Virus record (IMG/VR): IMGVR_UViG_3300044712_000557
Span: 1-64,000 of that record
Reading direction: 5' to 3' (one strand)
Origin: a virus
Length of the DNA stretch: 64,000 nucleotides
The translations under genes were made by a program, and so were the position numbers. This document shows, in pieces, positions 17,363 through 54,645 of this stretch (position 1 is the first letter of the stretch; each line of letters begins with the position of its first letter). The notes under the pieces were generated by a model. The model was not told the origin of the DNA. It saw only the letters and a program-made list of their open reading frames with translations, and ran no database searches.

Positions 17363-18603
17363 TCTTTACCGGGCCTTAGCAGTCCTATAGGGTGGGCTAG
17401 GGACGCTTGCGTGCGAGGCAGGGGGCACGCAGAGGAGATCGCATGGAATCTGAGATTGTCGTGAGTACTCTTCCGACCGAGGAAGATCGAGAGACGTTCT
17501 GGGAGATGCTCTACCTGCTCTCAGGCTGGGGTCTGTGTGATCCTGAGTTTCACAAGCTGGGGGCCAAGCTGTTCAACGACGAGTCGTTCACTGATGACAT
17601 GGAAGGACTACACGGCAAATGCCACATTCAATGATGGGAACCCGAGGATCCATCCGCTTTCGAGGGAAGAACAGCCCGCGCTACCGCAAGGAAGCGTACA
17701 GGCTGGAGCAGGAGACGTACCTGCGCGCCCTGGCGCACAAGGCCCAGGTGGAGGCGAAGCAGGCCAAGGACGCACTGGAGCGTGAGCGTCGTCCTCTGGC
17801 GCGCAAGCTCTGGCCGACAAGGTGAAGGGCTTCACGTCGCGGCTCTTCGGAAGGAAGACGGGATGAAGGAAGAGACTGCCCGCAAGTGGATCGACCTGGA
17901 GCGCTGCTTGCCCGAGGGCGCAATGGAAGCCATGAAGCAGAGCCACAAGGGTGAGTGGTGTACTCAGTTTTGCGGGGCCAAGTTCTTCTTCAAGAAGCTT
18001 GAGCAGGCAAAGCGCGAGTACCCGGAGCTGTGAGGTAGATTATGTGCCTATGCGGTGGCGTGCTAGAGACTGCTACGCTTGTGGCAGCCGGGGGATACAT
18101 TGTGAAGAAGCAGTGGAAGATCAAGCTGCCATCGCTTGCGACGATCGTGGCCGGAATGCGCGCTGGTGTGCGTCCCGGCCAAGTGTTCAAGGACAAGCGT
18201 AGGCCTGCCAGGGTCAACGAGAAGGCACAGGTGAAGGCGGATGCTGCGGATCACTGCTGACGTAAACGGCAAGCCCATTGGGTACATCTTCGCCCACAAC
18301 GTTGGGACGCTGAAGGGTGAGATCTGCTCGTATGACGCAGCCATCTGGAACCCTGCTGCAGATGATGGAGTCCTGGGGCTGGAGGGAATCACCCACTTTA
18401 GGCCTGACGGATGGATTTCTCTGGTGAGGAAGGTGATCAATGCTGTCACCTAGGCTTCGTTTCATGTTCCGCGCACGACGGGCCTTTGAGCAGGGATGGA
18501 TGGCTGTCGCTGAGCGCAGTGGTGGAAAGCTGGCATTTGCAGATTGCCCCTACTGGAGCCTGCTGGATCTGATGGACGAGAGGCGCGCATATTGGGAGGG
18601 AAA

Positions 18604-20166
18604 GTGAGCAACCAAGCTCTGATCGATCAGTTGCTGGCAGCACGCGAGGTTAGCACGCCGCTGATCGCGATCACCACGCCTGATCAGCCGGCAGTGGCGA
18701 GCGCCATCACGAAGTCGCTGAATGGCAAGACGCCTGTCATCTCGTGGGATCGCGTGAAGGGCTTCCAGCCCAAGAACAAGAAGGGTGTCGAGGCCCTGGA
18801 GTCGTTCTGCAACGCGAACGACATCAAGCCTGAAGATCTGTCCTTCGCTACCGCCGAGGCGAGGGACGCGTTCCGGCTTGCGATGACCCTGCCTGAGCAC
18901 ACTGTCCTGATCGCGTTCTCCCTGGACCGGTTCATGCGTGAGGAGTCTGGGGCAGTGGTCGTGCAGGCGATCCTGAACCTGCGTGATGCGTTCCTCAGCA
19001 ACCATCGCATGCTGATCGGCCTCAGCCCTGACTTCTCGTTGCCTGCCGAGATCCAGCATGACGTGATCCTACTGGACGATCCTCTGCCTGACGATGACAC
19101 CTATCGCGAGATCGTGAAGACGGCCATCAAGAACACCAAGGATGGCGGGCACGAGATCGAGAAGGTGTCCACTGAGACGGTGACGCAGACGGTTCGCGCT
19201 ATCCGTGGCCTGTCTCCATTCGAGGCCGATCAGGTTGTTTCGATGTCGATCGCCTCGACCGGCATGAAGAAGATCGACCTTGCGTCAGCGTGGAAGCTCA
19301 AGGTGGGAGCTACGAATAAGATCAAGGGTCTGACGATGACCCTCGACGGTCCCGACCTGAAGGATCTGCGTGGACTTAATCAGATCACCAGCATGCTCAA
19401 CGACCTTTGGGCTGGGCCTGAGCCGCCCGAGCTGGTCGTGCGCGTAGACGAGATCGACAAGACGATGGCTGGCCTGGGCAGCAATGGTGGCCCTGGCGAC
19501 AACACTGGTGTCTCCCAGGATCTCAACCAGAACTTCCTCGTCAACATGGAAGACAACGGATGGGTGGGCGCCATCCTGGTCGGCATCCGTGGCTCTGGCA
19601 AGACGATCCTCACGCAGAGCATCGGGGCTGCGCATGGTGTGCCAACGATCGCGATGGACGCTGGCGCGATGAAGGGCAAGCATGTGGGAGAGAGCGAGCA
19701 GGCATTCCGCGAAGCCTTCCGTACGATCAAGTCGATCGGAGGCTCTCGTGTTTGCGTGCTTGCTACCTGCAACAAGCTGGATGTCCTTCCTCCTGAGTTG
19801 CTGCGCAGGTTCAAGCTGCAGATCTGGTACTTCGATCTTCTGACCAAGGAAGAGCGAGATGCCCTGTGGCCCATCTACCTCAAGCGTTACGGTCACGACC
19901 TTAATGCCGAGCGTCCACATGACGAAGGGTGGACCGGCGCAGAGATCCGCAACTGCTGCGAGATGGCTTACAAGCTGCGCCGAAACGTGAAGGAGTACGG
20001 GAATACGTGCATCGTGCCCGTTACGAAGTCTGACCCTCGATCGGTTGAGGCCCTTCGTGACAAGGCGCAAAACTGTTTCTTGTCCGCTTCGTACCCTGGA
20101 CCGTATCGTAAGCCAGTGGCCGAAGTGGTCGAGTTCTCTGGTCGTCAGTTGGGAGGTAAGAATTGA
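18604..20166 (+). CDS. Ycf46-like AAA+ ATPase with rearranged motif order
   Basis: VRVDEIDK (Walker B) precedes GIRGSGKT (Walker A); then VGESE, VLATCN, LPPELLRRF, GWTGAEI. Confidence 0.85.
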   Translation: MSNQALIDQLLAAREVSTPLIAITTPDQPAVASAITKSLNGKTPVISWDRVKGFQPKNKKGVEALESFCNANDIKPEDLSFATAEARDAFRLAMTLPEHTVLIAFSLDRFMREESGAVVVQAILNLRDAFLSNHRMLIGLSPDFSLPAEIQHDVILLDDPLPDDDTYREIVKTAIKNTKDGGHEIEKVSTETVTQTVRAIRGLSPFEADQVVSMSIASTGMKKIDLASAWKLKVGATNKIKGLTMTLDGPDLKDLRGLNQITSMLNDLWAGPEPPELVVRVDEIDKTMAGLGSNGGPGDNTGVSQDLNQNFLVNMEDNGWVGAILVGIRGSGKTILTQSIGAAHGVPTIAMDAGAMKGKHVGESEQAFREAFRTIKSIGGSRVCVLATCNKLDVLPPELLRRFKLQIWYFDLLTKEERDALWPIYLKRYGHDLNAERPHDEGWTGAEIRNCCEMAYKLRRNVKEYGNTCIVPVTKSDPRSVEALRDKAQNCFLSASYPGPYRKPVAEVVEFSGRQLGGKN

Positions 20167-21059
20167 GCGCAGAGCCGCAGATCTCCGACTCTACCGTCGT
20201 ACTCAGCCTGGAGCTTGGTCGTGTCTCCAATCGCCGTCGCATCAAGAGCGACACCGAGGCGATCACGACTGATATCGACAGGTCGATGCTGCACCTTGGC
20301 GTCGACCTGTTCGACGCCCCTGAGCTTCGCGCGTGCCAGAACTTCCTGGTGAAGCTGAAGGCCTCCATCAAGCTCTTGACCGTTCCGTCGTTCTTCCGTG
20401 GCGGCATGTACCTCGTCAAGCTGGAGGCCTTCGAACAGGTCGACAAGCTGATCGAAGAGGCCAAGGAGGAATTCAAGCCTCTCGTGGAGGCATTCGCCAA
20501 CGCGGTCGATCAGCGTCGTGACGAGGCCAAGGAACGCCTCAAGGGTGCGTTCAATGCTGCTCTCTACCCGAATCGAGAGCAGGTTCTGGCGGCCTACAGC
20601 ATCTCGCATCAGTGGCTCACGCTGGCTACACCAACCTCGCTCAAGAAGATCAACATGGCCCTCTTTGAGCGAGAGCGTGTGAAGGCCGAGGAGGCCCTTA
20701 AGGTCGCCACCGAGGGAATCACAGCCCTGCTAGCAACGGAAGCCAAGCACCTCAGCGAGCACCTGATCGATCGCCTTACGCCTGATGCTGATGGTGAGGC
20801 GAAGCAGATCCGCAAGGGCTCAGTGAATGGCATTACTGAGTTCCTCTCCACGTTCCATCTCCGCAACATCGGAACCAGCGAAGAGCTTGATGCCCAGGTC
20901 GAGAAGATCAAGCGTCTGATGACCGGTGTCGACGTGGTCGATCTCCGTGGCAATGAGACGTTGCGCAACGACGTTGCTAAGGGGTTCAAGGAAGTTGCCT
21001 CTGCGCTCGATGCGCTGATCGTGGACAAGCCAAAGCGCTACATGGGCGGCGATGAGTAA
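20163..21059 (+). CDS. DUF3150-like protein
   Basis: Follows the AAA gene; GGMYLV, LKGAFNAALYP, NET LRNDVA pattern. Confidence 0.55.
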   Translation: MSAEPQISDSTVVLSLELGRVSNRRRIKSDTEAITTDIDRSMLHLGVDLFDAPELRACQNFLVKLKASIKLLTVPSFFRGGMYLVKLEAFEQVDKLIEEAKEEFKPLVEAFANAVDQRRDEAKERLKGAFNAALYPNREQVLAAYSISHQWLTLATPTSLKKINMALFERERVKAEEALKVATEGITALLATEAKHLSEHLIDRLTPDADGEAKQIRKGSVNGITEFLSTFHLRNIGTSEELDAQVEKIKRLMTGVDVVDLRGNETLRNDVAKGFKEVASALDALIVDKPKRYMGGDE

Positions 21060-22375: not shown

Positions 22376-22807
22376 ATGAGTCACGTTGCTGAGTGCAAGG
22401 CCGAGCTGAAGAACCTCGACGTCATCGAGGCTGCAGCGAAGCGTCTTGGCGGTCGACTGGTGCGAGGCCAGAAGACGTACAAGTGGTTTGGTCAGTGGGT
22501 TGGCGATACCCCGATGCCGAAGGGCATGACCAAGGCTGACCTGGGCAAGTGTGACCACGCGATCGTCTTCCCTGACGCCTCGTACGAGGTTGGAGTTCGC
22601 GTCCAGTCGGACGGAACATTCTCCCTGGCCTGGGACTGGTGGGGTGAGGGACGCTTGCTCCCAAAGATGGGCGACACCGGGGCCGGGAAGTTCGTCCAGG
22701 CCTACGGAATCGAGGCTGCGAAGCGTGCGGCTATCAGGAAGGGCTATGTCGCTCGTGAGACTGCCAAGTCTGACGGGAGTGTGATGCTGGAGCTTCTGTG
22801 TCACTGA
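22376..22807 (+). CDS. DUF1257 (Ycf35-like) protein
   Basis: MSHV..CKAELKNL...YEVGV...WDWWG...AIRKGY. Confidence 0.65.
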   Translation: MSHVAECKAELKNLDVIEAAAKRLGGRLVRGQKTYKWFGQWVGDTPMPKGMTKADLGKCDHAIVFPDASYEVGVRVQSDGTFSLAWDWWGEGRLLPKMGDTGAGKFVQAYGIEAAKRAAIRKGYVARETAKSDGSVMLELLCH

Positions 22808-23947: not shown

Positions 23948-24086
23948 CCGAGAAGGAATGGATTGTCCTCGCCTGCATCGTGCTGGCATATCTGGCAGGA
24001 GGGCCGGGGTTGGCGGTCATCCCTCTGGTTCTCTTGCTGATCATGGCCCACGACAGGAAGCCTCGTCCACCGTATGGGGGTGTCGC

Positions 24087-24347
24087 ATGAAGGTCACGTT
24101 CGAAGTCGACGGCAAAATCCGGTTCATCTACGAAGACGAGGGGGCCAGCCTGATGCAGGAGGTTGGACCGCTAGAGGTAAAGCGAGCCTCTCATGTCGAG
24201 CCGAAGTCTGGGCCGTATGGGACTTGGTGGCACGCCGACATGTCCCCGGTCGGTGGGCCTAGCCTTGGGCCATTTTCCACTCGCGCAGAGGCCCTGGAGG
24301 CCGAGCGTGACTGGCTGATCGCAGAAGGGATCCCGAAACCGCGATGA
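24087..24347 (+). CDS. hypothetical protein of the AAA/DUF1257/DUF2997 module
   Basis: RASHVEP..WHADMSPVGGPSLGPF..RAEALEAE..WL. Confidence 0.55.
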   Translation: MKVTFEVDGKIRFIYEDEGASLMQEVGPLEVKRASHVEPKSGPYGTWWHADMSPVGGPSLGPFSTRAEALEAERDWLIAEGIPKPR

Positions 24348-25143: not shown

Positions 25144-25443
25144 ATGGCAGATGACCGTGAGACAGTAGAAAGGATGCGAGCAGTCAGAGAGCCCACCAGA
25201 GACAAGTCGAAGTCGTTCATGGCTGCGTCAGAGGTGCTACGGCTTCGCCAGACGGTGATGCGCGTGTCGCAGGCCCGTCTGGCGGCCCAGCTCATTAGCC
25301 CCGAAGACGGGGAGCCAATCTCCCAGGGTGCCGTTTGGCTCTGGGAGAATGGCCGTAGGGCGGTGCCTCTCTGGGCTGCTCGTCAGATCCGCGCTATTGC
25401 GGAAGCTTGCAAGCGGTACGATGCCCGCCAGGAGAGTGCATGA
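25144..25443 (+). CDS. XRE-like HTH protein
   Basis: SQARLAAQL...ISQGAVWLWENGRRAVP. Confidence 0.7.
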   Translation: MADDRETVERMRAVREPTRDKSKSFMAASEVLRLRQTVMRVSQARLAAQLISPEDGEPISQGAVWLWENGRRAVPLWAARQIRAIAEACKRYDARQESA

Positions 25444-26300
25444 GTACATTCAACCGTTGGAGCAACAGTAGCCTTACGACGCTTCAGATGTGCGCGCATA
25501 AGTTCAAGCTGAAGCACCTCGACAAGATGTATCGCCAGTCTGGCTATCAGGCCAAGCGTGGGATAGCGGTCCATCACGTTGCCAAAGAAGCACACAAGCG
25601 TCAGATGGTGACAGCCAACCTCTGGACCGGAACATTGCCAGAGTTGAGCGAAGACCCTGGCAGCCCTCGCTCGATCGAGGAGGCGCGAGACATCGCGGCT
25701 AAGGAATTCGAGCGCGCTGTCAGTGACGGCGTGACGATGAGTACCAAGGACAAAGAGATCGGCGCAGATAAGCTCAAGGCTTCCTGCAAAGACACAGCAG
25801 TGGTCCTGGCTGCTCTCTACGTCTCAGACGTCGCACCACGCGTGAAGCCGGTAGCCGTTGAGCGCAAGGTTGAAATCAAGCCGCGCGACATGGATATCAC
25901 CATCATGGGCTACATCGACCTCGTTGAAGATGATCTTGGAGATGTCATCCGAGATCTAAAGACGGGGGAGAAGGCACCCTTCAAGGACGCGGCAAAGCTG
26001 TCGCAGCAGTTGACGATGTACGCCATGATTCGAGCCGCCGAGACTCGCAAGATGCCTCGCGAAGAGAGACTCGTGCATCTTGTGCGTACGCCTAAGTCGG
26101 AAGAGACAAGCATCGTCGTGCAGGCTACGACTCGTGATGTGGAAGACCTTGTGCGCCTTCGTGAGCGACTCCAGACAGCTATCGAGGCTGTCGACAAGGG
26201 TGTCTTTGTCCCCGCCGACCCATCGGCCCCTGGGAGCCCATGCAACTGGTGTGAGTACCGTGACGGTACGTGCAAGTACGTGAGGAAGCAGGAGGTCTGA
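25440..26300 (+). CDS. PD-(D/E)XK nuclease (RecB/Cas4-like exonuclease)
   Basis: MCAHKF, GIAVH, GYIDLVE..IRDLKTG, QLTMY, CNWCEY. Confidence 0.85.
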   Translation: MSTFNRWSNSSLTTLQMCAHKFKLKHLDKMYRQSGYQAKRGIAVHHVAKEAHKRQMVTANLWTGTLPELSEDPGSPRSIEEARDIAAKEFERAVSDGVTMSTKDKEIGADKLKASCKDTAVVLAALYVSDVAPRVKPVAVERKVEIKPRDMDITIMGYIDLVEDDLGDVIRDLKTGEKAPFKDAAKLSQQLTMYAMIRAAETRKMPREERLVHLVRTPKSEETSIVVQATTRDVEDLVRLRERLQTAIEAVDKGVFVPADPSAPGSPCNWCEYRDGTCKYVRKQEV

Positions 26301-26773
26301 TGCGCGATCGGTATGAGTACGTGGGTGGGTCTTCGCGCAAGTTCTGGGAGATCGAAAAGCCACGTTGCGCAGATGGCAAGTGGGGAGACTGGCTAGTGAC
26401 AGTGGTGTTCGGTCGCATCGGAACTGCTGGCCAGTCGCACACGAAGGTCTTTGGATCTAAGTGGACAGCGGAGAGCTACTACTCTAGCAAGGTCAGCGAG
26501 AAGGTCGGCAAGGGATACGTGCCTAAGGGCAAGATTGCCACCGTCTCTCCGAAGCTCCAGCAGATCCAGGGCAGTGCCATCCCGCAGTACGTAGTGCCCA
26601 AGGTAAAGCCGAAGCCTGCCTGTGCTCATCCCACCTTGACTCGCAAGGGAAATACCTACGAATGCGCAGCCTGCAAGAGCAAGGTCGAATTCGACAAGCC
26701 TCAGGCCTCCACCGTGCAGGTCTTTGAGATCGAACAGCAAGTTCGTCGCTACTTCGCGAGGGCTGGAGAATGA
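26300..26773 (+). CDS. WGR-domain protein with C-terminal zinc ribbon
   Basis: SRKFWEI..VVFGRIGTAGQ..EKVGKGY; CAAC. Confidence 0.75.
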   Translation: MRDRYEYVGGSSRKFWEIEKPRCADGKWGDWLVTVVFGRIGTAGQSHTKVFGSKWTAESYYSSKVSEKVGKGYVPKGKIATVSPKLQQIQGSAIPQYVVPKVKPKPACAHPTLTRKGNTYECAACKSKVEFDKPQASTVQVFEIEQQVRRYFARAGE

Positions 26774-27297
26774 AGGGTCCGTATATCCGTTCGTGCAGAA
26801 AACACCAGAGTGAACTCAAGGCTCGCTATGATCCTGCAGGGCACGAGAGCCTCTGGTGTACCAGTAGTCCACATGGATCGCACAAGTGCCGCTCCTGGAA
26901 CGTCAAGGATTCCAACGGGGAGACAATCTTCGTTGGCCACATCGACGCAACCTACCAAGTCGTATCTCCTGAGGTTGGCTTCCTCGATGAGGATCCCTTT
27001 CTTCCGCCCATGCCAGTTGGAGCTTGCCAGCGTGGTCATGAGAACGAATGGGTTTTGACGTCTGACATCCGCTATCGGTGCCGAGCGTGCTTGAAGATTG
27101 GTCAGGCCCGGAGGAACGCGAAGCGCAAGGCTGACCTAGAGGCAAGAGAGGCATACAAGAAGACTCCAGCGTACATTGCTAGGCTGGCTAACCAGCGAGA
27201 GTACCGCAAGAGGATGCGAATCAAGTACCCAGAGAAGTACGCTCAGTACCAGTCTAACCGTCGTCTAAAGAGAAAGCAGAGGCAGAAGAATGTCTGA
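26770..27297 (+). CDS. Cys/His-rich basic hypothetical protein
   Basis: CQRGH..YRCRAC; basic tail. Confidence 0.6.
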   Translation: MKGPYIRSCRKHQSELKARYDPAGHESLWCTSSPHGSHKCRSWNVKDSNGETIFVGHIDATYQVVSPEVGFLDEDPFLPPMPVGACQRGHENEWVLTSDIRYRCRACLKIGQARRNAKRKADLEAREAYKKTPAYIARLANQREYRKRMRIKYPEKYAQYQSNRRLKRKQRQKNV

Positions 27298-28102
27298 TCC
27301 CAACCCTATCGATCCCAACGTTACGCCAGCTCAGCCGGCTCCCGTGACTGCCATCATGGTCCCGCCGCAGCGTTCCGAGGTTGCCCACTTCAATCCCGAT
27401 GACCCTGCATCGATGTTCATGCAGACGAACGTCTTCGAACAGTTGCAGCGGGTTGCGAAGCTTATGGCCAGCAGCCAGCTCGTGCCCAAGCACCTGCAGG
27501 GGAATGCTGCCGACTGCTTCCTTGTCGTCTCTCAGGCTGTGCAGTGGAAGATGAACCCATTCGCCGTGGCGCAGTCCTGCTACGTACTGCAGGGTAAGGT
27601 TGGCTACGAGGGCAAGCTGATTGCCGCCATCGTCAACTCCTACCCTCGCCTCGCGAAGAAGCTGAACTACGAGTACAGCGGCACAGGTGCTCAGCGTCAG
27701 GTGCGTGTCTTCGGAACCCTAAAGGGCGAGGATGCTCCGCGTGAGGTCATCGGCAAGGTGTCCGACTGGAAGACCTCGAATCGCCAGTGGGAGACACAGA
27801 CCGACCAGATGCTCTCGTACCGTGGCGCTCGTGAGTGGGCTCGCCGGCACATGCCCGAAGCTGTACTTGGGGTGTATGCTGAGGAGGAGTTGGTGGTTGT
27901 CGCCAACGCGGCTCCCGTGGTCGTGGAGGCTCCCAGCTTGACTGACGTTACTGGCGTGGTCGTAGAGGCTCAGGACGACCCTGGAGAAGAGATCCGCTCT
28001 TCGCGCAGGAAGCCCAACGTCAAGAAGCTAGAGCCTGAGCCGATTGACGCCGAGCCGATCGTTGAAAAGGACTCCGAGATCGACAAGCTCTTCACCAAGT
28101 GA
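27290..28102 (+). CDS. recT: RecT-family ssDNA-annealing recombinase
   Basis: VPKHLQGNAADC..QWKMNPFAVAQ..GYEGKLI..QMLSYRGAREWARRHMPE. Confidence 0.8.
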   Translation: MSDPNPIDPNVTPAQPAPVTAIMVPPQRSEVAHFNPDDPASMFMQTNVFEQLQRVAKLMASSQLVPKHLQGNAADCFLVVSQAVQWKMNPFAVAQSCYVLQGKVGYEGKLIAAIVNSYPRLAKKLNYEYSGTGAQRQVRVFGTLKGEDAPREVIGKVSDWKTSNRQWETQTDQMLSYRGAREWARRHMPEAVLGVYAEEELVVVANAAPVVVEAPSLTDVTGVVVEAQDDPGEEIRSSRRKPNVKKLEPEPIDAEPIVEKDSEIDKLFTK

Positions 28103-28890
28103 AGCATCCCCACGATCCGAAGAAGTACTTGCACTGCGCTGAGTGCGAGAATTCACGGCCTGACGGAGAGCATGCGCGCGTCTACGCACGGCTCTCCGTC
28201 GCCGTGACGTTAGAGGGACACCTACTGATCACTTGCGTCCGTCATGAATGCGTCGTTGCCTTCCTAGAGAACCAGAAGATCGCTGACATCCTGTCCGATA
28301 TCGCCCTCGCAGAGTGCGATTGCGGAGAGCACAAGAACGAGGTGACACATTGAGGATCCCCGTGTTTGCCGTACGCCAGCCCGACAAGGCCGGGAAGCTG
28401 TTCGTTGTTTCCGCCTGGACCGATGAGTACTGCGCGAAGTACGAAGCGGCTCGCTGGACGCAGGATCTAAAAGAGGATTGGGACTATGTTCCTGCCGTGC
28501 TTGTCGTGGAAGAGAACGACGATGCGCCGACTACTGAGTGACCTCTTCTGTGGGCTGCGTGAGCGATGGGAGCATGAAGATCGCTTACGCATGAAGGCGA
28601 TTGCCCATCTCTACGGAGAGCTCGCGTCGATGAATGGAGAGGTCATCAAGAGCACCGGGCAGATCGTCGCGAGGGATAGCGCATGAAATGGACCATGTAT
28701 GCCATCATGGACGCCAATGGAAGGTACTTCAACGGCCAGCATCATCGGTATTCGGCCACGACGCATCCTAAGCTTTGGTCAAGGATGCGTGACGTGAAGT
28801 ATGCCCATCAAAGCGAAAGCAGGGCGGGGAACGTCTTCAAGTGGTTAAACATCGCGTTACCACTCACCATCATCGAAGTGGAGGTAAAGC

Positions 28891-29370
28891 ATGGCAAAGC
28901 GTAAGCTGGCTCCAGGGCTGGGTCGCCTTGACGAGATGAAGATCGACCCACTCTACGATCAGGCCCGCGACCTGATGGAGCAACTTACCAAGTTTTTCAA
29001 CGTTGCGTTCCAGCGAAAGACCGCTGGCGGGATCGAGTTCCTGGGTGAGATCATTCGAGCCCTGCGAGACGGATATGGTCCAGAGGAGCTTCGCGTAGCT
29101 TATTGGGTTGCGCGCTGTCTCACTGGCAAGGCCTCATGGCTCAGCGGGGCCTTGCGTGGCGATCTCTTGCCGTCCATCGTGCTGCGCCATGATGGAGGCA
29201 TCAATCCCAAGACGGGGAAGCCTGCCGTGCGATGGCTTGACGACATGCTGGCGCGCAGGATGGAAGTTAGCCATGCCATGGTGCAGGCACTCTACGACAA
29301 CCTTCCTGACGACCTGAAGGAGTCCGAGAAGGAGATCGTTCCTCTCATGGGGGTGAAACTGAATGTCTGA
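28891..29370 (+). CDS. protein resembling a phage initiator C-terminal domain, coupled to DnaB
   Basis: RALRDGYGPEEL...LLPSIVLR; overlaps the helicase start. Confidence 0.45.
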   Translation: MAKRKLAPGLGRLDEMKIDPLYDQARDLMEQLTKFFNVAFQRKTAGGIEFLGEIIRALRDGYGPEELRVAYWVARCLTGKASWLSGALRGDLLPSIVLRHDGGINPKTGKPAVRWLDDMLARRMEVSHAMVQALYDNLPDDLKESEKEIVPLMGVKLNV

Positions 29371-30712
29371 AGAGGTTGTAGACCTAGATAACCCAGAGGT
29401 TCTCTTGATCGCCGGGGCCTTGATGAAGCCAGCCCTGGCGATCGAGGCGGCTCGCTACGTGACCCATGATGACTTCCAGGACCATCGTATCGGTCAGATC
29501 TGGGGGATCATCATCAAGATGGTCAACGACGGGCTCAAAGAAGACGAGATCGATATCGTAGGCATTGCACATCGGTATAGTACGAACCCGAATGAGCAGC
29601 GGAATATCCGCATGCTCTGCTCTGCGATCACCGATGGGATGCCTCGTGCGACGTCCCTCGTCCTGCTGGCCCAGCGAGTGCGACGTCGCGCTACGATGCG
29701 ATTGGCGATGGGCGAGATCCGCAAGATCGCCGTCGAGCTTCAGTCGCAGATCACTTCCAACGATGGCGACATGCCAGACCTGGACCTGAGGCTGTCTGGG
29801 CTCTCGGTGGCCGTCCATACACGATCTGACCTAACCAAGAAGCGCACGCAGTACAAGGATCTGGGCTCAGAGGTCAGTCGGTACTTCGACGGGCTCATCA
29901 GCGGGGATAAGGGACTCTACGTGCCCACGGGGCTCCCAACCCTGGACCGATACCTTGGTGGAGGATTGCGCCCTGGGCAACTCCACGTCGTCCTAGGGGG
30001 CACGGGATCGGGCAAGACGGCCTTTACCTCGCAGCTATGCGATCGGGCCTCTCTGGCGGGCAAGCGTGCCCTTATGTTCTCGATGGAAGTCGACCCCCTG
30101 GACGTCTACATCCGCGACGTGGAACGGGTAGCTGGGGTGAGCCGCTGGGATCTTAGGTCGAGGGTCCAGGCGGAACGTGAGGCGGCCCAGATGGCCCTCA
30201 TGGAAGCCCAGAATATCATCCTCAACCAGCCTCGTGGGAAGACCGTATACGGGGAGCCGATGTCCCTGGAAGGGATCCGGCAGGCGGTCCTAACGGAGCG
30301 TGTCAGGGGCGGCAAGGTAGACATGATCGGTGTCGACCATGCCCAGGTAACTTTGCCTTCCGAGGGCGAGCTTCGTACGATGCCGCGCTATCTTCAGGTG
30401 AAGAGTACCGCTGAAGGCCTGCGCGCACTGGCTCGCCAGCTAGGCATCGCAGTCGTCTTGACCGCTCAGTTGAATCCGCCACCGAAGGGTGAAGAGCCCA
30501 CGATGGCGATGGTGCGCGAGTCCAAGGACATCAACAACGCCGCTGAAGTTGTCATGCTCATTTTCCATAAGAAGGAAGAGGAGCCGATGACAGGGCAGAT
30601 GTTCATCTCAGAGTCCTGGCTCATCCTTGAGAAGGTGCGCGCTGGCCGCGAGGGGCGCATCGCTCTTAAGTATGACGGCAAGTGCTTCAGGTTTACGGAG
30701 GCTACGTTGTGA
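29363..30712 (+). CDS. dnaB: DnaB-like replicative helicase
   Basis: VPTGLPTLD..GGLRPGQL, GGTGSGKT, FSMEV, VDHAQ, LTAQLN, RES, EKVRAG. Confidence 0.9.
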   Translation: MSEEVVDLDNPEVLLIAGALMKPALAIEAARYVTHDDFQDHRIGQIWGIIIKMVNDGLKEDEIDIVGIAHRYSTNPNEQRNIRMLCSAITDGMPRATSLVLLAQRVRRRATMRLAMGEIRKIAVELQSQITSNDGDMPDLDLRLSGLSVAVHTRSDLTKKRTQYKDLGSEVSRYFDGLISGDKGLYVPTGLPTLDRYLGGGLRPGQLHVVLGGTGSGKTAFTSQLCDRASLAGKRALMFSMEVDPLDVYIRDVERVAGVSRWDLRSRVQAEREAAQMALMEAQNIILNQPRGKTVYGEPMSLEGIRQAVLTERVRGGKVDMIGVDHAQVTLPSEGELRTMPRYLQVKSTAEGLRALARQLGIAVVLTAQLNPPPKGEEPTMAMVRESKDINNAAEVVMLIFHKKEEEPMTGQMFISESWLILEKVRAGREGRIALKYDGKCFRFTEATL

Positions 30713-47070: not shown

Positions 47071-50000
47071 CTACTTCGCTTTTGGGCCGCTACCGCTTCC
47101 CTTCGGCTTCCCCAGAGCCGTACGGCTGTAGTACTTGCTCTGAGTCTCGAAGGCACCGCGAGGACGATTCGGATACGACGGCCTGTTGCGCGACACGACG
47201 GCCGTAGATACGCTACTGAGCCCGGTCTTGACGCCCGGTTCTACGGTATGGCCTGGGAAGAGAGCCTTCAGCTCGTCTACGAGTTCTCCAGGCTGATAGA
47301 ACTTCTGGAACGTCCTCGTATCCTTCGCGCCATCCTTAGGTGGCGGTCCCATGAGGACGCCATCAAAGATTGGCTCGCCGCCCATGTTCTTTTCTGCGCG
47401 CACAGCAACGTACATCTTGTCCTTCGCGCGGCCCATCGCCTCGATCCACATCGAGTGGCGCATGTTTGGCGGGATCACGTTACCAACGAAGGTGTTCGTT
47501 ACGATGTCGGCCATGCCTTCTGGCTTCGTTGGGCTGTGAGTAGGATCGTAGCCCTTCACGTTTGCCGCGCCCGCCTCCTCGTAGTGCTTGAGGTCGGCTC
47601 CCTTGCCGGATCCCCAGTCGAATACGGTCTTGCCCTTGATGGCCTCGCCGATAGCTTTCGCATGCGACGAAGATCCAGAACGAGCCATAGCCGTACGGCC
47701 AGCGTTCGCTACAACCTGCTCCTCAGTGTACTTGCGAGGGTTCCATTCCTTGCTGTATGGCACCGGGCGACCGTACTGCTTTGGAAGCTCAGATAGGGAA
47801 GCCTGAGAAGGAGCCTTGCGCAGTGGGATCGTCTTCTTGTCAGGCTCAGCTACGCCGAGAGACTTCGCAGCCGCCTTGCGCATCTGAGTGAGCGTGTCCT
47901 CAGAGAATGGAGACTTGTCGGGCGCTGCCTCTGGGGCATTGCCGGCCATGAAATCTCTGACGACATTCTTATCGGCCTGATTGGAGTCGTGCCCACCCTT
48001 ATACTCAGCCATCATCTTGTTGATGTACGGCATATCGAACTTGAATTGGATCTTCTGCTGCTTAATGAACTTCCCATTCTTGTCCCAGATGCGTCGGTCG
48101 GTCAGCAGCTTCTCATAGCCGGGCCAGTTGCGCATACGTTCGAACGGGGGCTTGACGCCACGCTGCTTACATAGCGCATCCAGCTTCTTTAAGTCGCCCT
48201 GCCACTCATCGATGAAGATCTCGACTGGAGCGGTGTCGATACGCTCCTGGCGATCCTTGGCATCCAGCTTGTCCCACGCCTCCTTGAGCAGGCGACTCTC
48301 AGCGTAGGCCTGTGGGTTCTTGGCTCCCTTCGCTGTTCCCTCGGCGATCTTAGCCGCCATCGTCTTCGCGTCGATCTTCGGGAGATGCTGCTCGCTGAAC
48401 TGGTCAAAGGCAACCTTCTCAGGGTCGAGGCCGACCTTCTCGCCAGTCTTAGCGCTCCTCCAGTTCTGCTCTTCAGAGTAGTCCTTCCAGTTCTCCATGC
48501 GGTTGACTAGCTGGTGCTCCCTGCTAAGGCCAGAATCGTGATACGGAATGACGTAGTCGATATCCTTTGAGGCCAGTAGCGCCTTGATATGCTTATCACT
48601 GATCCCGATTGCCTCGACGCCGACATTGTCGTACTTGTCACGCAGTTCATATGCACGCTTCATGTTGCGGATGGACTCGCGCTTATTAAATCTGAGCGAG
48701 CCGTCCGGGTTGAAGCCGTCACCCTCGGGGATGACGCTGCAATTGATCATCTCGTTCGTGTCCTTCATGGACTCGACGTACTCGATCTCCTTGGTGTAAG
48801 CCTGACCCTTGAGGCCACGCAGAGCCTTGTCCATTACGGCCTGCATCTTGTCGAGTAGATGCGGAACCTCAAAGTCAGACCAAGAGTTGGAGCGAGCGCC
48901 AGAGTAGCGGTTCATCTTGTCGATCTGACTCTGCTTCATGCTGAGATACTCGCCCTTGTACTCAGCTCGTCCGATAGGCACCTTGGCGTTCAGGCCAGCA
49001 AATGCAGCAGACAGAACAGCGTACTGCTCTGGGTCATCTACGAACATCTTGTTGCGGCCTTCCTGCGTCAGGGCTAGCTTAGCGTTCTCTGCCGTAAGTT
49101 GTGCGATCTGGCCCTTGCCCTTGCCAGTCTTAATCTCGTAGCCCTCAATGGCCTTATTGATCGCCGTGTCCATCTTGATGCGACGGGACTCGACGTAGCA
49201 AGGTCCGCAGTTAACTTCGTGGCCCTTGTCCTCAAGCATGCGTCGGATCTTCAAGATGTCATCTGCCTCAAGCATCTTGCCGCGCGCCTTCTGGATGGCG
49301 TCAACAGTGTCCGACAGCTTATAGCGGCGACGGCACATCGTCGTGTAGTCCTCGCTCACCGGGTAACGAGGATCGCCATTCTTCTTGATGCCAGTGGCAC
49401 CGTTGAGTGCGACGAAATCGAGCCGATCAGGATCGGCATTGACTGCAGCCGCAACGCTACGGAGGTCAGCCTCAAATGACTGCATCTGCTTTTCCGTAAA
49501 GGCCTTGACCTTCTTATTGGCCTTGCGAGCAGCATACATCGTTTCGTTCACGGTACGAGTGGAGTACTTAGCGGGCGCTACCGCCCCTCGCGTCATGACC
49601 ACGCCATTCTTCTGGACCACGCCCTCGCCCTTAGATCCAGCGTTGAACAGCGGCTCATCAGCGGGAGACTGCTTGCCCATACGAGGCTTCAAGTCCGTCT
49701 TCTGAGTCTCCAGAAGCCCCTTCTGCCCAGAGCGCGGCTGCGCAATGTTGCCAGCTCGTTCTAGCATCGACCCAGTAGAGCTGCGTAGAGGCTTCGGGCC
49801 TACGCTAGCCTTCGGTTCGATTCCATAGGCCTCGTATCCCTTCGCCTTCATGCCCGCATTCGAAGCTTCGCGCTCGAATGCCTTGCCAGTGCTCATGCTC
49901 TCAAAGATGGACTCTGGATCTGGATGAACTGCGCGCAGAGCTGTCGTGAAGAAGTCACTGACCTTCTTGAAGTACTTGCCAATCACGCCCTGTGGCTGCC

Positions 50001-53000
50001 ACTGTGGGTTGGCCTGACGGCGGTTGAAGTACTCACGATAAGCGTCAGAGATAACTTCGTCTACGCCACGGTTGGCTGCCTCTGCAATCGGGCCATACTT
50101 CTTCTGTAGAACTGCACGCTCCTTCGGTGTTGCGAAGTGATCCAAGAAGACGTGGCCAAATTCGTGAGGGATCGAACCCTTGCGAACGACTTCGATGATT
50201 GCTTCCTTGTCGAGGACAGTCTTGAGCCCCTCTGCGACCATCTTGCCAGCGCGCACGCCTTCGATCGCCCCTGGGGAGTACTCTCCAGCAAGAGTACTTG
50301 GGTCGACCTCGATGCGATCCTTCGGGATGATGCGGATGTTTCCGCCTGGAGTCTCAATGACGAGCGACCCGTCCGTCTCATCGACGTAGGCGCTCTTCTT
50401 GAAGTTGTCAGGCAGGCTTCTGATGATCTGCGTCGGAGTTACGAGCGGACGACGAGACTCTACGAGGTCGGAGAGCGCGTGCTCCTTAACGTTGAGTTCA
50501 AACTGACCGTTCTCTAGCCAGCGTCCCTCTCCACGAGCAGCTAGGCGATCACGCATCGCGATAGCAGCCTTGGTGACGATACCTTCCGACACGCCGACCT
50601 TGTTAGAGCTTGGGAAGATGATCTTGTCGGCACCGTTGGCCTCGGCGAATTCACGTACGGCCTGGATCATCGCTGCGGAGTTCTCTCCCTCGCCCTTGTC
50701 TAGGTGCCACATCTCCACCTTTCCCTTGCGCAGGCGAACGGACACGGACTCTCCGTCCGGGCCATGGAGTTTGGACTTTCCTAGGTTGCCCTCCTCGACT
50801 CCGAATCCCCCAGGCAGGTAAGGTAGTTTGTCGCTATCTACGAGGTAACTCTTCGCAGTATCGCCAGCCTTACGAAGAGCCTGTTTGATGCCGCCCATAA
50901 CCTTGGTAGCGGGTTCTGCCCTGAACGGCCCCTCGACTTTTGGGGGCATCCTCAGCTCAGGCTTCTCCTTCGTCTTCTGGTAGTCCTCGGCCAGGGAGTA
51001 CTGCTTGCCCCCTCCTTCGACAAATTCCTTCTTAACCGATGGCCTTACTCTGCTTGGGGTTCCATCGGAGTCGATCGAGGTGATCATGGATCCGTCTGGG
51101 TGGACATATCCAATACGGTTGCCATGAATATCTTTAGCGTCTGGGTTGGGCGCAGTCTCACGGGCCAGCTTAGCGGCTGCTGCGAAGTCACGCTTGTTCA
51201 CCAGGGCCTTGATCTGGTCTACCTGTTCTGGGGTGCGTGCGGTCCTAGGAGCCGTCTTTGCTTCAGGCGCAGTCTCCGGGGCCACCTCGGCCACTGGAGT
51301 AGCTTCTGGGGCCGCCTGGGCCTCCACGGGGGCCTTCTTCGGAGTCTTCTTGCCTGTCTTTTCGGCCCGAACCTTATCGTAGGCAGCCTCAGCTTGTTCA
51401 CGAGTCGTCTCAATACCCTCGCGAGCCTGGGTAGCCTGGATGGTCGAGGACATCATGTCCTTGCGCTGCCCCTCGTCGGCCAGAATCTTCTTGACGTTTA
51501 CCCTCTTGCTCTTCTTGGTCGGAGCCGGCGCTGGAGCTTCAGGTGGGGCTGGTGGCGGATCAGGAGCAGGCGGCTCGGAAGCCTTCCGCTCGATTACCGC
51601 GTCTACGGCCTTGATGTCTGCCTGGAGATTGGCTGCGTCAACCGGATGCTCTTCGGTCTTAGCGGCAGCCTCTAGTTGATCACGAAGGCGCGCGAGAGCC
51701 GGTAGATCGAGGGCGTCGAGGCCCTTGCTTTGAGTCTCGGCGAATTTCCCTTCGATCCCCGTTGGTCCCGTTGGCTGCTCGGCCTTCGGCTCGACCAGAG
51801 CCTTCCCCTTCTGCTCACGATAACGCTTCAGAGAGTCCTGAAGGAGAGGCTCAAAGGTGGCCTGATCAACGTGCCTCTTGATGAGTCGTGCGCGGATTGC
51901 CCCTGCGTTCCCCTGGCTCTCTGCCACGAGGGCATCCATGGCGGCCTGAGGAGACGTAGACATTCCAGATCCAGCGATAGCGCCAGCCGTCGCGTTCTGC
52001 TTCGCGTTCTCACGCTCGGCAACGATAGCCTTAACGGCACGATCACGCGCGATAGCTCGCATGATCTTAGAACCAGCCTCGTCCTGTGGGATTGGAACGT
52101 CCTCTACGACTCCAGTATCCTTGTTCTTCTTTCTCTGGGTAAGCTTACCAGTCCTCCACTCCTCAACGGTACGGTCGTACTCTGGGTGGAAGTCCTGCTC
52201 ATTACGACCGATCCCGAGATCCTTCGCACGCTGCTCGCCCTTCGACACTTCAGGCTCAGGCACACCAGCTTCCTTCATCGTCTTCGTAACATCAGCTAGA
52301 GGCGTGTGAGGAGTCTGCTGGAACGGATCGGCTGCGGCAACTTCGGCGGCATTGCGCTCAGGAGCACCAGGGACTACACGCGGAGACTCGCCACGTACTT
52401 CAGGCGCAAGCATGCCAAGAAGCTGTGCCTGCTCTTCTGGCGTGAACCCTCCTAATCCTCCACGCTCAGTCTTGCTCTGCCATGGATCTGGAGCCATCAA
52501 CTGAGACTGCTGCTCAGGTGTTAGCTGGATAGGCGGCTCAGAGTAAGGAGCCTGCAGTGGCTCGCCCCACTTGATCCCCTTCGCAGCTTCAGCGTTCGCG
52601 ATGTTGTCTGCGATGCCTAGGTCTTCTCTTTGGCGAGCCTTGGCCATCTGAGTCTCGTAGGCCTTCATCGCAGGCTCTAGGGCCTCAGATGGATCCATGC
52701 CGTATGCCTTCGCATAGGCCTTTACCATCTTCTCTAGGCCAGGGTTCTGCTCGTACTTGTCGAGTAGGTCTAGCTCTGCTTGGGCCTTCTGCTCAGCAAT
52801 CTGAGCCTTACGCTGCTTGAGAGTCTCCACTGCAGACGGAGGCGGTGCCTGGTCGGCCTGTTGCGTTGCTGCTAGCCCTTCGTTGAGGGGCGCTTCCATC
52901 GCAGCCTGATCGAACTCAGTCGCAGGACGACCAGCAAATGGATCGAGGCCAGCCCTTGCAGCGAGAAGCTGCTCTGGGCTACCAGCCATAGCTCCAGTGA

Positions 53001-54645
53001 TGCTCTTTGGATCGACGCCCTGTGTTGCGGCTAGCTGCTCAACAATGAAGCCAACGTCTGGGCTTGCGTTGATCTGCTTCCAGTTCGCAGGGTCTAGGCT
53101 GTCGCGCCCCTGAAACAGCTCTGCGTCGGTAGCCATCCCCGGTCGTCCACTTTCCGGCGGGAGATAGCCCTCATTGACTGGAGCTTTACTCCCACTTACG
53201 GCTCTGGCTAGCTTGGCCCCTAGTCTTTCTCCAGCCGCACCCATGCGCTTTCGAATTGCATATCCTAGCGCTAGTCCCATGTATGGGCTACCCGTCAGTG
53301 CGGTTCCGGTCGCAGCTCCCCCAGCATAGCCCGCCACCTCGCCGGCCATCTTTCCAGCCTTAGGCAGGAAGGACGAGGCTTCCGATGTGGCCTGCGCAGA
53401 TACAGGCTTTTCACCAACCGTCTCTACCCTCATCCCCGTTAGATTTGGATCCGGCGTACCTTCTGTGGCTACTGGCTTGTTGGACTTGTAAGCCTCTAGG
53501 GCCTTCGATACTACGTCCTTTGCACCATTAACTACGTCGCCCTGTGGCCCTACTCCCTCAGCTAGATGCTTACCAGAGTGAAGGGCGAAATATGCATCGG
53601 TGCCGGACCCCACGATGGCAGGCAGCGCCTTCTTCAGGTCGCCCTCAGCCAATGCCTCGCCAGCCTGTCCTCCCTGCTCGGCAGCTCCCATTGCCATAGT
53701 TGGAGTGAAGTAGCCAGAGATCGCCTTATTGGCAGCAGAAGCCGTCTTACCCGATGCTACGCGACCCTTTAGAAATGCTTTTGTCCTAGGATCAGCGGCA
53801 GAGAAAATCTCAGACAGAGGGCCGGCAGTAGAGGCTTCAGTCTTCTTGATTCCCTCTAGAGTCTTGGCAGCATTTGCTCCCCTAGCCGCCTCAGCACCAG
53901 AGAATCCCATAGCCAACATCGTGGGATCTCCACCGGCCATGGCTACGCCAAGATCAAAAGGCTTAGACGCAGCCTGCTCAAAAGAATTCATCCATGGATT
54001 CTGCTCGGCGATAGACTCCTGCACCTCAGTAGGAGATCCAGCCTCTGACTGAGGATCGAGGGCATGCACGTTTAGCCCGATGGAAGCGCGCAATCCACGG
54101 TTGACAGCCTCTGGGAGGCTCTTCGGAGCATCAGTCCTAGCCCATTCGTTCAAGCGAGTTTGAGCGCCACCACGACCAAGCTGATAGATAGGACTACCGT
54201 TGGGATCAAGACGAGTTCCAGTAACGGCCTCCATGAGGCCTCGGCGTTCTCCAGCCACCGGCTTGATATTTCTCCCGCCGGTCTGAATGGAATCGAGCAC
54301 CCTGCCAAGTACGTCCGCAGGGATACCCATCGTGTCGCCTACAGCTCCGACTGTGGTGCCAGACGCAGCCCTTACCGCATCGAGAGTTGGACTACCAGTT
54401 GATGGAGCAGGCTCAGATGTACTAGGAGCGTTCAGCCACGGAGAATTCTTGACCCCAGACGCAGCATCTCCAAGTTGGGCCATCATTCTCGTCCCAAGGC
54501 CAACTTCAGACTTTTGCTTCATGGCGTCTTGGAATTTGGCCATGGCGATCGGCTGAGTCTGAATGGACTTCTCTAGGTCATCATCGTCCCAAGAATCAAA
54601 CTCGCCTGGGAATACTTCCCTGATCTGCTTTGCTAGGATGCCCAT
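47071..54645 (-). CDS. giant polyvalent virion/ejection protein (2524 aa)
   Basis: HEFGH zincin motif; C..CGPC/SDF/YTK domain; C-terminal SAM methyltransferase (FDWGSGKG, TFQKFY); last in the ejection-protein cluster. Confidence 0.8.
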   Translation of the reverse strand: MGILAKQIREVFPGEFDSWDDDDLEKSIQTQPIAMAKFQDAMKQKSEVGLGTRMMAQLGDAASGVKNSPWLNAPSTSEPAPSTGSPTLDAVRAASGTTVGAVGDTMGIPADVLGRVLDSIQTGGRNIKPVAGERRGLMEAVTGTRLDPNGSPIYQLGRGGAQTRLNEWARTDAPKSLPEAVNRGLRASIGLNVHALDPQSEAGSPTEVQESIAEQNPWMNSFEQAASKPFDLGVAMAGGDPTMLAMGFSGAEAARGANAAKTLEGIKKTEASTAGPLSEIFSAADPRTKAFLKGRVASGKTASAANKAISGYFTPTMAMGAAEQGGQAGEALAEGDLKKALPAIVGSGTDAYFALHSGKHLAEGVGPQGDVVNGAKDVVSKALEAYKSNKPVATEGTPDPNLTGMRVETVGEKPVSAQATSEASSFLPKAGKMAGEVAGYAGGAATGTALTGSPYMGLALGYAIRKRMGAAGERLGAKLARAVSGSKAPVNEGYLPPESGRPGMATDAELFQGRDSLDPANWKQINASPDVGFIVEQLAATQGVDPKSITGAMAGSPEQLLAARAGLDPFAGRPATEFDQAAMEAPLNEGLAATQQADQAPPPSAVETLKQRKAQIAEQKAQAELDLLDKYEQNPGLEKMVKAYAKAYGMDPSEALEPAMKAYETQMAKARQREDLGIADNIANAEAAKGIKWGEPLQAPYSEPPIQLTPEQQSQLMAPDPWQSKTERGGLGGFTPEEQAQLLGMLAPEVRGESPRVVPGAPERNAAEVAAADPFQQTPHTPLADVTKTMKEAGVPEPEVSKGEQRAKDLGIGRNEQDFHPEYDRTVEEWRTGKLTQRKKNKDTGVVEDVPIPQDEAGSKIMRAIARDRAVKAIVAERENAKQNATAGAIAGSGMSTSPQAAMDALVAESQGNAGAIRARLIKRHVDQATFEPLLQDSLKRYREQKGKALVEPKAEQPTGPTGIEGKFAETQSKGLDALDLPALARLRDQLEAAAKTEEHPVDAANLQADIKAVDAVIERKASEPPAPDPPPAPPEAPAPAPTKKSKRVNVKKILADEGQRKDMMSSTIQATQAREGIETTREQAEAAYDKVRAEKTGKKTPKKAPVEAQAAPEATPVAEVAPETAPEAKTAPRTARTPEQVDQIKALVNKRDFAAAAKLARETAPNPDAKDIHGNRIGYVHPDGSMITSIDSDGTPSRVRPSVKKEFVEGGGKQYSLAEDYQKTKEKPELRMPPKVEGPFRAEPATKVMGGIKQALRKAGDTAKSYLVDSDKLPYLPGGFGVEEGNLGKSKLHGPDGESVSVRLRKGKVEMWHLDKGEGENSAAMIQAVREFAEANGADKIIFPSSNKVGVSEGIVTKAAIAMRDRLAARGEGRWLENGQFELNVKEHALSDLVESRRPLVTPTQIIRSLPDNFKKSAYVDETDGSLVIETPGGNIRIIPKDRIEVDPSTLAGEYSPGAIEGVRAGKMVAEGLKTVLDKEAIIEVVRKGSIPHEFGHVFLDHFATPKERAVLQKKYGPIAEAANRGVDEVISDAYREYFNRRQANPQWQPQGVIGKYFKKVSDFFTTALRAVHPDPESIFESMSTGKAFEREASNAGMKAKGYEAYGIEPKASVGPKPLRSSTGSMLERAGNIAQPRSGQKGLLETQKTDLKPRMGKQSPADEPLFNAGSKGEGVVQKNGVVMTRGAVAPAKYSTRTVNETMYAARKANKKVKAFTEKQMQSFEADLRSVAAAVNADPDRLDFVALNGATGIKKNGDPRYPVSEDYTTMCRRRYKLSDTVDAIQKARGKMLEADDILKIRRMLEDKGHEVNCGPCYVESRRIKMDTAINKAIEGYEIKTGKGKGQIAQLTAENAKLALTQEGRNKMFVDDPEQYAVLSAAFAGLNAKVPIGRAEYKGEYLSMKQSQIDKMNRYSGARSNSWSDFEVPHLLDKMQAVMDKALRGLKGQAYTKEIEYVESMKDTNEMINCSVIPEGDGFNPDGSLRFNKRESIRNMKRAYELRDKYDNVGVEAIGISDKHIKALLASKDIDYVIPYHDSGLSREHQLVNRMENWKDYSEEQNWRSAKTGEKVGLDPEKVAFDQFSEQHLPKIDAKTMAAKIAEGTAKGAKNPQAYAESRLLKEAWDKLDAKDRQERIDTAPVEIFIDEWQGDLKKLDALCKQRGVKPPFERMRNWPGYEKLLTDRRIWDKNGKFIKQQKIQFKFDMPYINKMMAEYKGGHDSNQADKNVVRDFMAGNAPEAAPDKSPFSEDTLTQMRKAAAKSLGVAEPDKKTIPLRKAPSQASLSELPKQYGRPVPYSKEWNPRKYTEEQVVANAGRTAMARSGSSSHAKAIGEAIKGKTVFDWGSGKGADLKHYEEAGAANVKGYDPTHSPTKPEGMADIVTNTFVGNVIPPNMRHSMWIEAMGRAKDKMYVAVRAEKNMGGEPIFDGVLMGPPPKDGAKDTRTFQKFYQPGELVDELKALFPGHTVEPGVKTGLSSVSTAVVSRNRPSYPNRPRGAFETQSKYYSRTALGKPKGSGSGPKAK

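Follow-up and report, generated by a model that had tools for sequence, protein, structure and literature searches.

A phage AAA ATPase family with the Walker B segment transposed ahead of Walker A

Here we describe a AAA ATPase gene of a tailed phage in which the Walker B strand and the helix behind it stand upstream of Walker A. The gene lies at 18604..20166 (+) in the window, which is the stretch of 64,000 nucleotides that opens the IMG/VR virus record IMGVR_UViG_3300044712_000557. Few enzyme folds are conserved as strongly as the ASCE/AAA+ core, and one of its defining features is taken to be that Walker A is followed by Walker B and then by sensor 1. We found the altered order not only in this protein but throughout its family, and we found that the moved unit corresponds to the Walker B-α3 unit of relatives that keep the normal order. 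At the level of the sequence we put the probability that this conserved segment transposition is real at about 0.97. Structure prediction and coevolution additionally make it very probable that the transposed unit folds back and rebuilds a canonical, active AAA site.

Motif order and its conservation

All motifs quoted in the initial annotation of this DNA, which had proposed the transposition from the letters alone, are contained in the open reading frame (ORF) 18544-20166 in frame +1. The longer TTG-initiated version of this ORF from 18544 is probably not the one that is used. Because GGGAGGG stands in front of the GTG at 18604 and because this start agrees with a 520-residue gene call, here named P0002, GTG 18604 is probably the true start; public gene callers predict the same 520-residue protein. 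Residue numbers refer to P0002, with codon n starting at nucleotide 18604+3(n-1). The parts of the gene are the following.

18604..20166, +: ATPase gene, 520 amino acids (P0002), two-domain AAA protein, GTG start with GGGAGGG in front
18604..19341, +: D1, residues 1-246, AAA-like but degenerate; the AlphaFold2 secondary structure shows five strands and a lid of four helices
19342..19419, +: linker strand and helix α0 of D2, residues 247-272, ending in a GPEPPE loop
19420..19563, +: transposed unit, residues 273-320, with β3/Walker B, K286, Gly-rich loop, α3 and MEDNGW
19432-19452, +: Walker B strand L277-E283 (LVVRVDE, VVRVDEIDK region) with D282 and E283
Residues 298-306, within the transposed unit: Gly-rich loop GD..GVSQD at the pore-loop-2 position
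Residues 303-318, within the transposed unit: helix α3 (AlphaFold2)
Residues 315-320, C-terminal end of the transposed unit: MEDNGW motif
19567..19605, +: β1 and Walker A, G322-T334, with the P-loop GIRGSGKT (327-334) at 19582-19605
19672..19698, +: pore-loop-1 region K357-E365 (KGKHVGESE), VGESE being 361-365
19738..19749, +: α2/β4 junction G379-R382, the usual place of β3-α3 (about 40 residues), which is absent here
19750..19773, +: β4 and sensor 1, V383-N390, with VLATCN (385-390) at 19756-19773
19804..19809, +: Arg-finger pair R401/R402 of the second region of homology (SRH), within LLRRF (399-403, 19798-19812)
19846..20118, +: helical lid 415-488 and conserved C-terminal tail to about residue 505, with GAEIRN and its near-invariant R449

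The chain of D2 is accordingly ordered α0, β3 (Walker B), α3, β1 (Walker A), α1, β2, α2, β4 (sensor 1), Arg fingers. These are the motifs that had been read in the initial annotation, in the same order and with Walker A at 19582-19605, and all of them were found in frame. The accompanying claim that no Walker B stands at the usual place also held up, since only 3-4 residues lie between the end of α2 (379) and the start of β4 (383) and there is thus no room for one. The alignment to archaeal VAT agrees with this: in the numbering of the longer ORF, query residues 342-401 match chain residues 322-381 and query residues 401-475 match chain residues 422-501, and the 40 VAT residues that are passed over between the two stretches contain Walker B and α3. 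The MEDNGW motif, which closes the transposed unit, we infer to be the counterpart of the MDGF inter-subunit signalling (ISS) motif.

Measured against the Pfam AAA family (PF00004), the protein contains a Walker A of the form G-x4-G-K-[ST], a Walker B of the form hhhhDE, sensor 1 and the Arg fingers of the SRH, but it does not show the collinear order Walker A, β2, Walker B, sensor 1. It reaches 46 bits overall, while its best stretch spans profile positions 2-55 only, and it matches no AAA profile collinearly. The ends of D2 are unchanged, with α0 on the N-terminal side and β4, β5 and the lid on the C-terminal side, so that two adjacent internal blocks have been exchanged. Because α0 and the lid keep their places at the domain ends, this is an internal block swap, as originally proposed, and not a circular permutation. 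D1 possesses neither a Walker A GK[ST] nor a Walker B DE. The gene product is very probably a phage AAA ATPase that is built like the type II enzymes and in which an inactive AAA-like D1 is followed by a D2 that is predicted to be active.

The order is a property of the whole family. A word-indexed search gave 530 relatives, and in an exhaustive search over 50%-identity clusters 4,685 of these were matched through their representatives at E ≤ 0.001, at least 929 of them at E ≤ 1e-30. Walker B precedes Walker A in 34 of 34 aligned members with 38-80% identity, and the same order is kept in all 257 full-length homologues that were aligned to the family profile. By motif scan, 239 of 262 sequences have their Walker B on the N-terminal side of Walker A at a distance of 39-50 residues. 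Conservation to this extent lies far outside what chance would produce.

More importantly, the catalytic residues are kept. E283 of Walker B, G330 and K333 of Walker A, N390 of sensor 1 and the Arg finger R402 are each present in 257/257 sequences. The neighbouring positions vary little: position 334 is T or S in 256 members, K286 behind Walker B is found in 254 and R401 in 247, and at position 282 there are 233 D and 23 E among the 257. From this invariant catalytic set and the Arg fingers we infer that the protein is an active ATPase and forms rings.

Relatives are encoded on at least 363 IMG/VR contigs. One further member, gp103 of the cultured Tunturiibacter phage Tunturi_3 (PP885686, L002:5995-7590), gives a single collinear match of 477 bits to the family profile. 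Its annotation reads just "ATPase", and it has no NCBIfam match at 1e-5. A scan of the GTDB representatives produced long matches at only three loci, all in contigs of metagenome-assembled genomes, and hence no sign that the permuted family resides in cultured bacterial chromosomes.

Predicted fold of the permuted domain

An AlphaFold2 model was built on a 34-sequence alignment and reached a predicted local distance difference test (pLDDT) value of 89.7 and a predicted template modelling score of 0.80. In D2 it contains α0 (259-270), a strand at 277-281, a helix at 303-318, β1 (321-327), α1 (333-343), β2 (348-351), α2 (361-379), β4 (383-389), β5 (407-410) and a lid of four helices (415-488). 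D2 arrives at five strands only when strand 277-281 is included.

Compared as a whole, the model matches Rix7 and Cdc48 in Foldseek at E of about 1e-13, and VIA-align superimposes 404 residues on p97 D1D2 (Z 17.9, root-mean-square deviation (rmsd) 6.1). D2 alone aligns with Vps4 and with p97 D2 (3cf0) at Z of about 15 (15.0 for 3cf0, with an rmsd of 2.8) and an rmsd of 2.8-3.0 over about 202 of 252 residues. The shortfall is roughly the size of the moved unit in the model, which a sequential aligner would be unable to place.

We then turn to coevolution, for which mean-field direct-coupling analysis (DCA) was performed on 257 sequences with an effective number of 223. The strongest coupling of the entire protein connects R280 of the moved strand with T337 of helix α1. 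In the full-length list of top-L pairs the segment has 84 pairs to the rest of D2, 19 to D1 and 4 to the linker and α0. At the level of strands, we found 4 pairs for β3-β4, 5 for β3-β2, 2 for β1-β4 and 3 for β1-β5, and the β3-β4 pairs 278-384, 282-388 and 284-387 are in parallel register. Zero DCA pairs were obtained between β3 and β1, between β3 and β5 or between β3 and the strands of D1. Additionally, D282 couples with the Walker A residue T334. This strand pairing gives the canonical sheet order 5-1-4-3-2, so that the domain is predicted to hold a five-stranded 5-1-4-3-2 sheet with a C-terminal helical lid.

A short linker bears on the question into which sheet the moved strand inserts. Coevolution is blind to whether a contact is made within a chain or between chains, and AAA rings hold their subunits close, so one could imagine a three-dimensional domain swap in which the β3-α3 unit completes the sheet of the neighbouring subunit. 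In the AlphaFold2 model, however, α3 ends at 318 and β1 starts at 321. A link of 2-3 residues reaches only the start of β1 in the same subunit, and the segment would consequently insert into its own subunit, beside β4, where α3 normally ends. The monomer model is, moreover, confident over 271-330 with the exception of the Gly-rich loop. We consider such a swap very improbable.

Insertion of the moved strand into D2 of its own chain has also to be weighed against the idea that the DEIDK strand is part of a separate degenerate domain, a point that the initial annotation had itself raised, or of a linker. D2 would then lack a Walker B and would bind ATP without hydrolysing it. A degenerate AAA-like domain does exist at the N-terminus, and the 19 weaker segment-D1 couplings in the top-L list point in its direction. 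But D1 is complete with five strands of its own and a four-helix lid that ends before residue 246, and the segment comes after α0 of D2. Its strand couples to β4 and β2 of D2 and to no strand of D1, its D282 is paired with T334, and the 84 couplings to D2 stand against the 19 to D1. An invariant E283 and a nearly invariant K286 would be unexpected for a linker, and without strand 277-281 only four strands would be left for D2. Thus, a placement outside D2 is very unlikely.

By our own topological reasoning, the standard fold is reachable for the permuted chain: the new crossovers β3-β1, β1-β2 and β2-β4 would be right-handed, with the helices on their usual faces.

Identity of the moved unit

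The normal-order relatives that resemble gp96 of mycobacteriophage Corndog allowed us to ask what the moved unit corresponds to. A segment profile, made of the 47 columns of the transposed unit alone, matched 117 of 117 of these proteins at Walker B-α3, downstream of Walker A, with 44-61 bits; upstream of Walker A it matched in none of the 117.

The full family profile behaves accordingly on proteins of normal order and breaks into pieces that are out of sequence. On VAT D2, profile positions 309-371 correspond to chain residues 321-383, positions 261-315 to 377-428 and positions 350-444 to 402-502, and among the PDB sequences p97 D2 gives the same out-of-order tiling. On Corndog gp96, residues 314-373 match profile positions 309-368 (52 bits), residues 373-412 match 264-306 (26 bits) and residues 415-547 match 370-483, so that the pieces tile exactly and only the middle block is out of place; the protein of the Streptococcus satellite Javan368 behaves likewise. 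In the reciprocal search, a profile of the 117 Corndog gp96-like proteins matched the permuted proteins in the same four pieces. A full-length collinear alignment to the Corndog gp96-like family failed, giving four separate matches with a best domain of 50.5 bits. The prediction that hidden Markov models (HMMs) would give local matches out of order was thereby borne out with VAT, p97, Corndog gp96 and Javan368 and in the reverse direction.

We also moved the segment back. In 255 sequences it was relocated in silico to the α2/β4 junction and the result was scored on the normal-order profile. The score rose in 255 of 255 cases, by a mean of 42.4 bits and a minimum of 35.4 bits, the four fragments merged into one domain match and the best single-domain score increased from 50.5 to 179.7 bits. 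As a control, random segments of equal size were moved over the same distance, and these changed the score by a mean of -22.1 bits, with only 0.9% scoring better. The segment-profile result, the exact tiling on Corndog gp96 and the gain of 42.4 bits together support the proposal that the β3-α3 unit was moved intact to a place upstream of β1.

From this follows how convergence has to be judged, by which the upstream segment would have been invented independently while the ancestral Walker B-α3 unit was deleted. Taken on its own, the 57-residue stretch is hardly recognisable: phmmer found no AAA protein among the PDB sequences, its sole match being unrelated (E 0.08), and on VAT, p97 and similarly distant AAA proteins the segment scores only about 6.5 bits. 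Against the close relatives, however, the likeness spans about 45 residues and includes DEIEK, the Gly-rich GD..GVS loop and the L..M[EQ][DE] helix end. The 44-61 bits fall in all 117 normal-order relatives exactly onto Walker B-α3, and the relocated segment yields one full-length collinear match. We regard independent invention as highly unlikely.

A local rearrangement by assembly or sequencing error, which the initial annotation had flagged and which the metagenomic origin of the IMG/VR record might suggest, has a negligible probability and is excluded by the family-wide conservation of the order: the frame is intact, the junctions are conserved, and the order is common to 257 of 257 homologues, which show 35-80% identity and stem from a large number of separate samples and sources, to 80 IMG/VR loci and to the cultured, fully sequenced Tunturiibacter phage, the homologues including hundreds of independent metagenomic ones.

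Relatives and precedents

The Corndog gp96-like ATPases (gp96 of mycobacteriophage cluster O; JavanS368_0002), of which more than 4,000 proteins are found at E ≤ 1e-10, have the same build as the permuted proteins, with a degenerate AAA-like N-domain and a classical AAA C-domain. The two families share the DEIEK...GD.GVS...L.WMQ[ED] segment, the VGESE context and an SRH with adjacent Arg residues. The VP..S.P..I..LR tail is also seen in Corndog gp96-like proteins, and the tail region aligns in both Corndog gp96 and Javan368. The likeness extends to D1: positions 16-260 of the normal-order family HMM match residues 7-260 of P0002 with 37.4 bits, and the family member P0211 with 46.3 bits. D1 is, by sequence comparison, homologous to the N-terminal domain of the normal-order relatives, and it also aligns with D1 of p97/Cdc48.

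The differences concern the moved unit and its surroundings. Corndog gp96-like proteins run Walker A, Walker B, sensor 1, and Corndog gp96 and Javan368 give long contiguous matches to CDC48 and FtsH models, unlike the permuted proteins. At pore-loop 1 the Corndog gp96-like proteins carry F or Y in 115 of 117 cases, while the permuted family has mostly L, H or I. A lid Arg equivalent to R449 is absent from Corndog gp96 and Javan368. The link to Ycf46 comes only from the automatic Atlas label "ycf46" of a neighbouring cluster at rank 17; it is a lead and does not establish the two as relatives.

Over both domains, the best structural matches are the type II unfoldases p97/Cdc48/VAT, Rix7/NVL and Afg2, in which Walker A, sensor 1, the Arg fingers and the lid align in sequence with the permuted protein. 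In those enzymes both D1 and D2 bind nucleotide and have the normal order, whereas here D1 is dead and D2 is permuted. The permuted protein is also without an N-terminal substrate or adaptor domain, and its pore loop is usually non-aromatic. We also considered membership among the anti-phage IetA/IteA-type ATPases and rejected it; the match was weak, with 18.9 bits in the lid region only.

P-loop NTPases with a non-standard motif order are known. The best-known natural examples are the TRAFAC GTPases YlqF/RbgA and RsgA/YjeQ, which are circularly permuted to the motif order G4-G5-G1-G2-G3 and keep fold and active site. Those are true circular permutations, in which the old termini were joined and new ones were made, whereas in the present family the termini are kept and the core is of the ASCE-type AAA kind. 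A non-circular permutation of the HK97 fold was reportedly established by cryo-electron microscopy for the capsid protein of Bordetella phage BPP-1. That is a structural fold, while the permuted AAA protein is an enzyme and its case is made from sequence, prediction and coevolution.

Proposed origin and working

We propose that the β3-α3 unit, comprising D282/E283, the loop at the pore-loop-2 position and MEDNGW, would have traded places with the β1-α1-β2-α2 block in a non-circular permutation. In three dimensions the moved strand would return to its normal slot between β4 and β2, giving the standard 5-1-4-3-2 sheet. The active site would then be an ordinary one, built from K333/T334, D282/E283 and N390, with R401/R402 provided in trans by the neighbouring subunit of the ring.

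The ancestors were in all likelihood normal-order, Corndog gp96-like and probably Ycf46-like phage ATPases. If β1-α1-β2-α2 is called block A and β3-α3 block B, the simplest route would be an in-frame tandem duplication of A-B to A-B-A-B, from which the first A and the last B were then deleted, with the flanks α0 and β4-β5-lid left unchanged. The moved strand is preceded by the GPEPPE loop, for which the family consensus is G-P-x-P-P. In the normal-order relatives a similar loop, P-P-[KR]-G, stands in front of β1, and this likeness fits a breakpoint exactly at the α0/β1 junction.

Three features suggest that the permutation may have altered more than the order of the chain. MEDNGW, the ISS-like motif, now leads into β1 instead of β4. 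In the lid, R449 of GAEIRN (nucleotides 19948-19950) coevolves with E316 at the end of α3 (nucleotides 19549-19551) at DCA rank 16; R449 may have been acquired as an adaptation after the chain was permuted, or it may be a residue of the sensor-2 kind. Finally, the aromatic position of pore-loop 1 is His in this protein and L in 112, H in 50 and I in 35 members of the family (197/257), with an aromatic residue in 43 of 257. One may speculate that these features describe a remodeller that is coupled differently from the threading unfoldases. As for the biological role, it is possible, though we would not call it probable, that the protein is an ATP-driven protein remodeller that acts early in infection together with a genetically linked helical protein of about 300 residues.

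Several points speak against the picture drawn here or against parts of it. The placement of the moved strand in three dimensions is a prediction from secondary structure, coevolution and linker length, and AlphaFold2 and DCA draw partly on one and the same covariation signal. The duplication-deletion route is a model, and no two-copy intermediate was found among the 257 permuted or the 117 normal-order sequences. The loss of the pore-loop-1 aromatic residue in most members argues against a standard threading unfoldase. In the full-text literature on permuted AAA, P-loop or Walker motifs, which was covered for open-access papers only, no description of the arrangement was found. The candidate papers speak of permutation with regard to methyltransferases only, nothing useful connects Ycf46 with phages, and no paper on Tunturiibacter phages was found.

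Implications

The proteins appear to combine ordinary enzyme chemistry with a chain topology that is unprecedented or at least undescribed and that is common to a large phage family. Because this family is large, old and clearly selected, it would mean that blocks inside the domain can be exchanged without loss of the fold and the active site. Such a family is useful for studies of folding pathways, of the constraints on topology and of the evolution of permutations, and it offers a direct test of whether the covalent link between α3 and β4 matters for inter-subunit signalling. As Tunturi_3 gp103 stems from a cultured phage, the arrangement is open to laboratory testing.

There is also a practical side. 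The permutation halves or abolishes profile-HMM scores, so that members are under-annotated, and collinear aligners misplace Walker B. The weak annotation of the permuted proteins can thus be traced to their failed collinearity with the AAA profiles.

A more far-reaching claim, which at present we have to call doubtful, is that these proteins are the first recognised natural lineage of non-circularly permuted AAA+ (ASCE) ATPases, that they are catalytically active and that the rewiring has functional consequences. If this were true, MEDNGW and pore-loop 2 would be covalently tied to β1 and the P-loop and no longer to β4 and sensor 1. Together with the aromatic loss and the coevolution of R449 with α3, the coupling of the ring, between its subunits and to its substrate, would then be unlike that of normal AAA unfoldases.

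Genome setting and linked genes

The record that holds the window is a complete virus genome of 93,162 bp with direct terminal repeats. Downstream of the ATPase gene a recombination and replication block extends over 25407-30712 (+), with a PD-(D/E)XK exonuclease (25407-26300), a RecT-like annealing protein (27290-28102) and a DnaB-like helicase (29363-30712). With these exonuclease, RecT-like and DnaB-like genes in its vicinity, the ATPase gene belongs to the early or replication region of the genome of a tailed phage. Further along the window are an ORF of 2,524 amino acids at 47071-54645 (-) and more large ORFs at 54645-56123, 57638-60334 and 61916-63967, the latter three without a PHROG or Pfam match.

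Three neighbouring ORFs recur in related genomes.

20163..21059, +: 298-amino-acid protein, TTG start overlapping the ATPase stop codon, mostly helical
22376-22807, +: small ORF of 143 amino acids without a family match, recurring in 30 of 80 related loci
23958-24347, +: small ORF of 129 amino acids without a family match, recurring in 27 of 80 related loci

Of the 80 related IMG/VR loci, 74 have a homologue of the protein of about 300 residues, in most cases on the same strand and no more than about 3 kb downstream. Among soil and environmental phages the ATPase and this linked protein are a common gene pair, and the 298-residue protein is probably a functional partner or a substrate of the ATPase. 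AlphaFold2 models it with a pLDDT of 89.2 as a small sheet with long helices. It belongs to no family in Pfam, PHROGs or PADLOC; Foldseek against the PDB gave nothing at E ≤ 0.001, and the wide VIA search returned generic helical bundles only, with Z ≤ 9. A complex prediction of the two proteins scored 0.00, below the mark, a value that says nothing for or against binding. The ORFs of 143 and 129 amino acids may be parts of this conserved early module as well.

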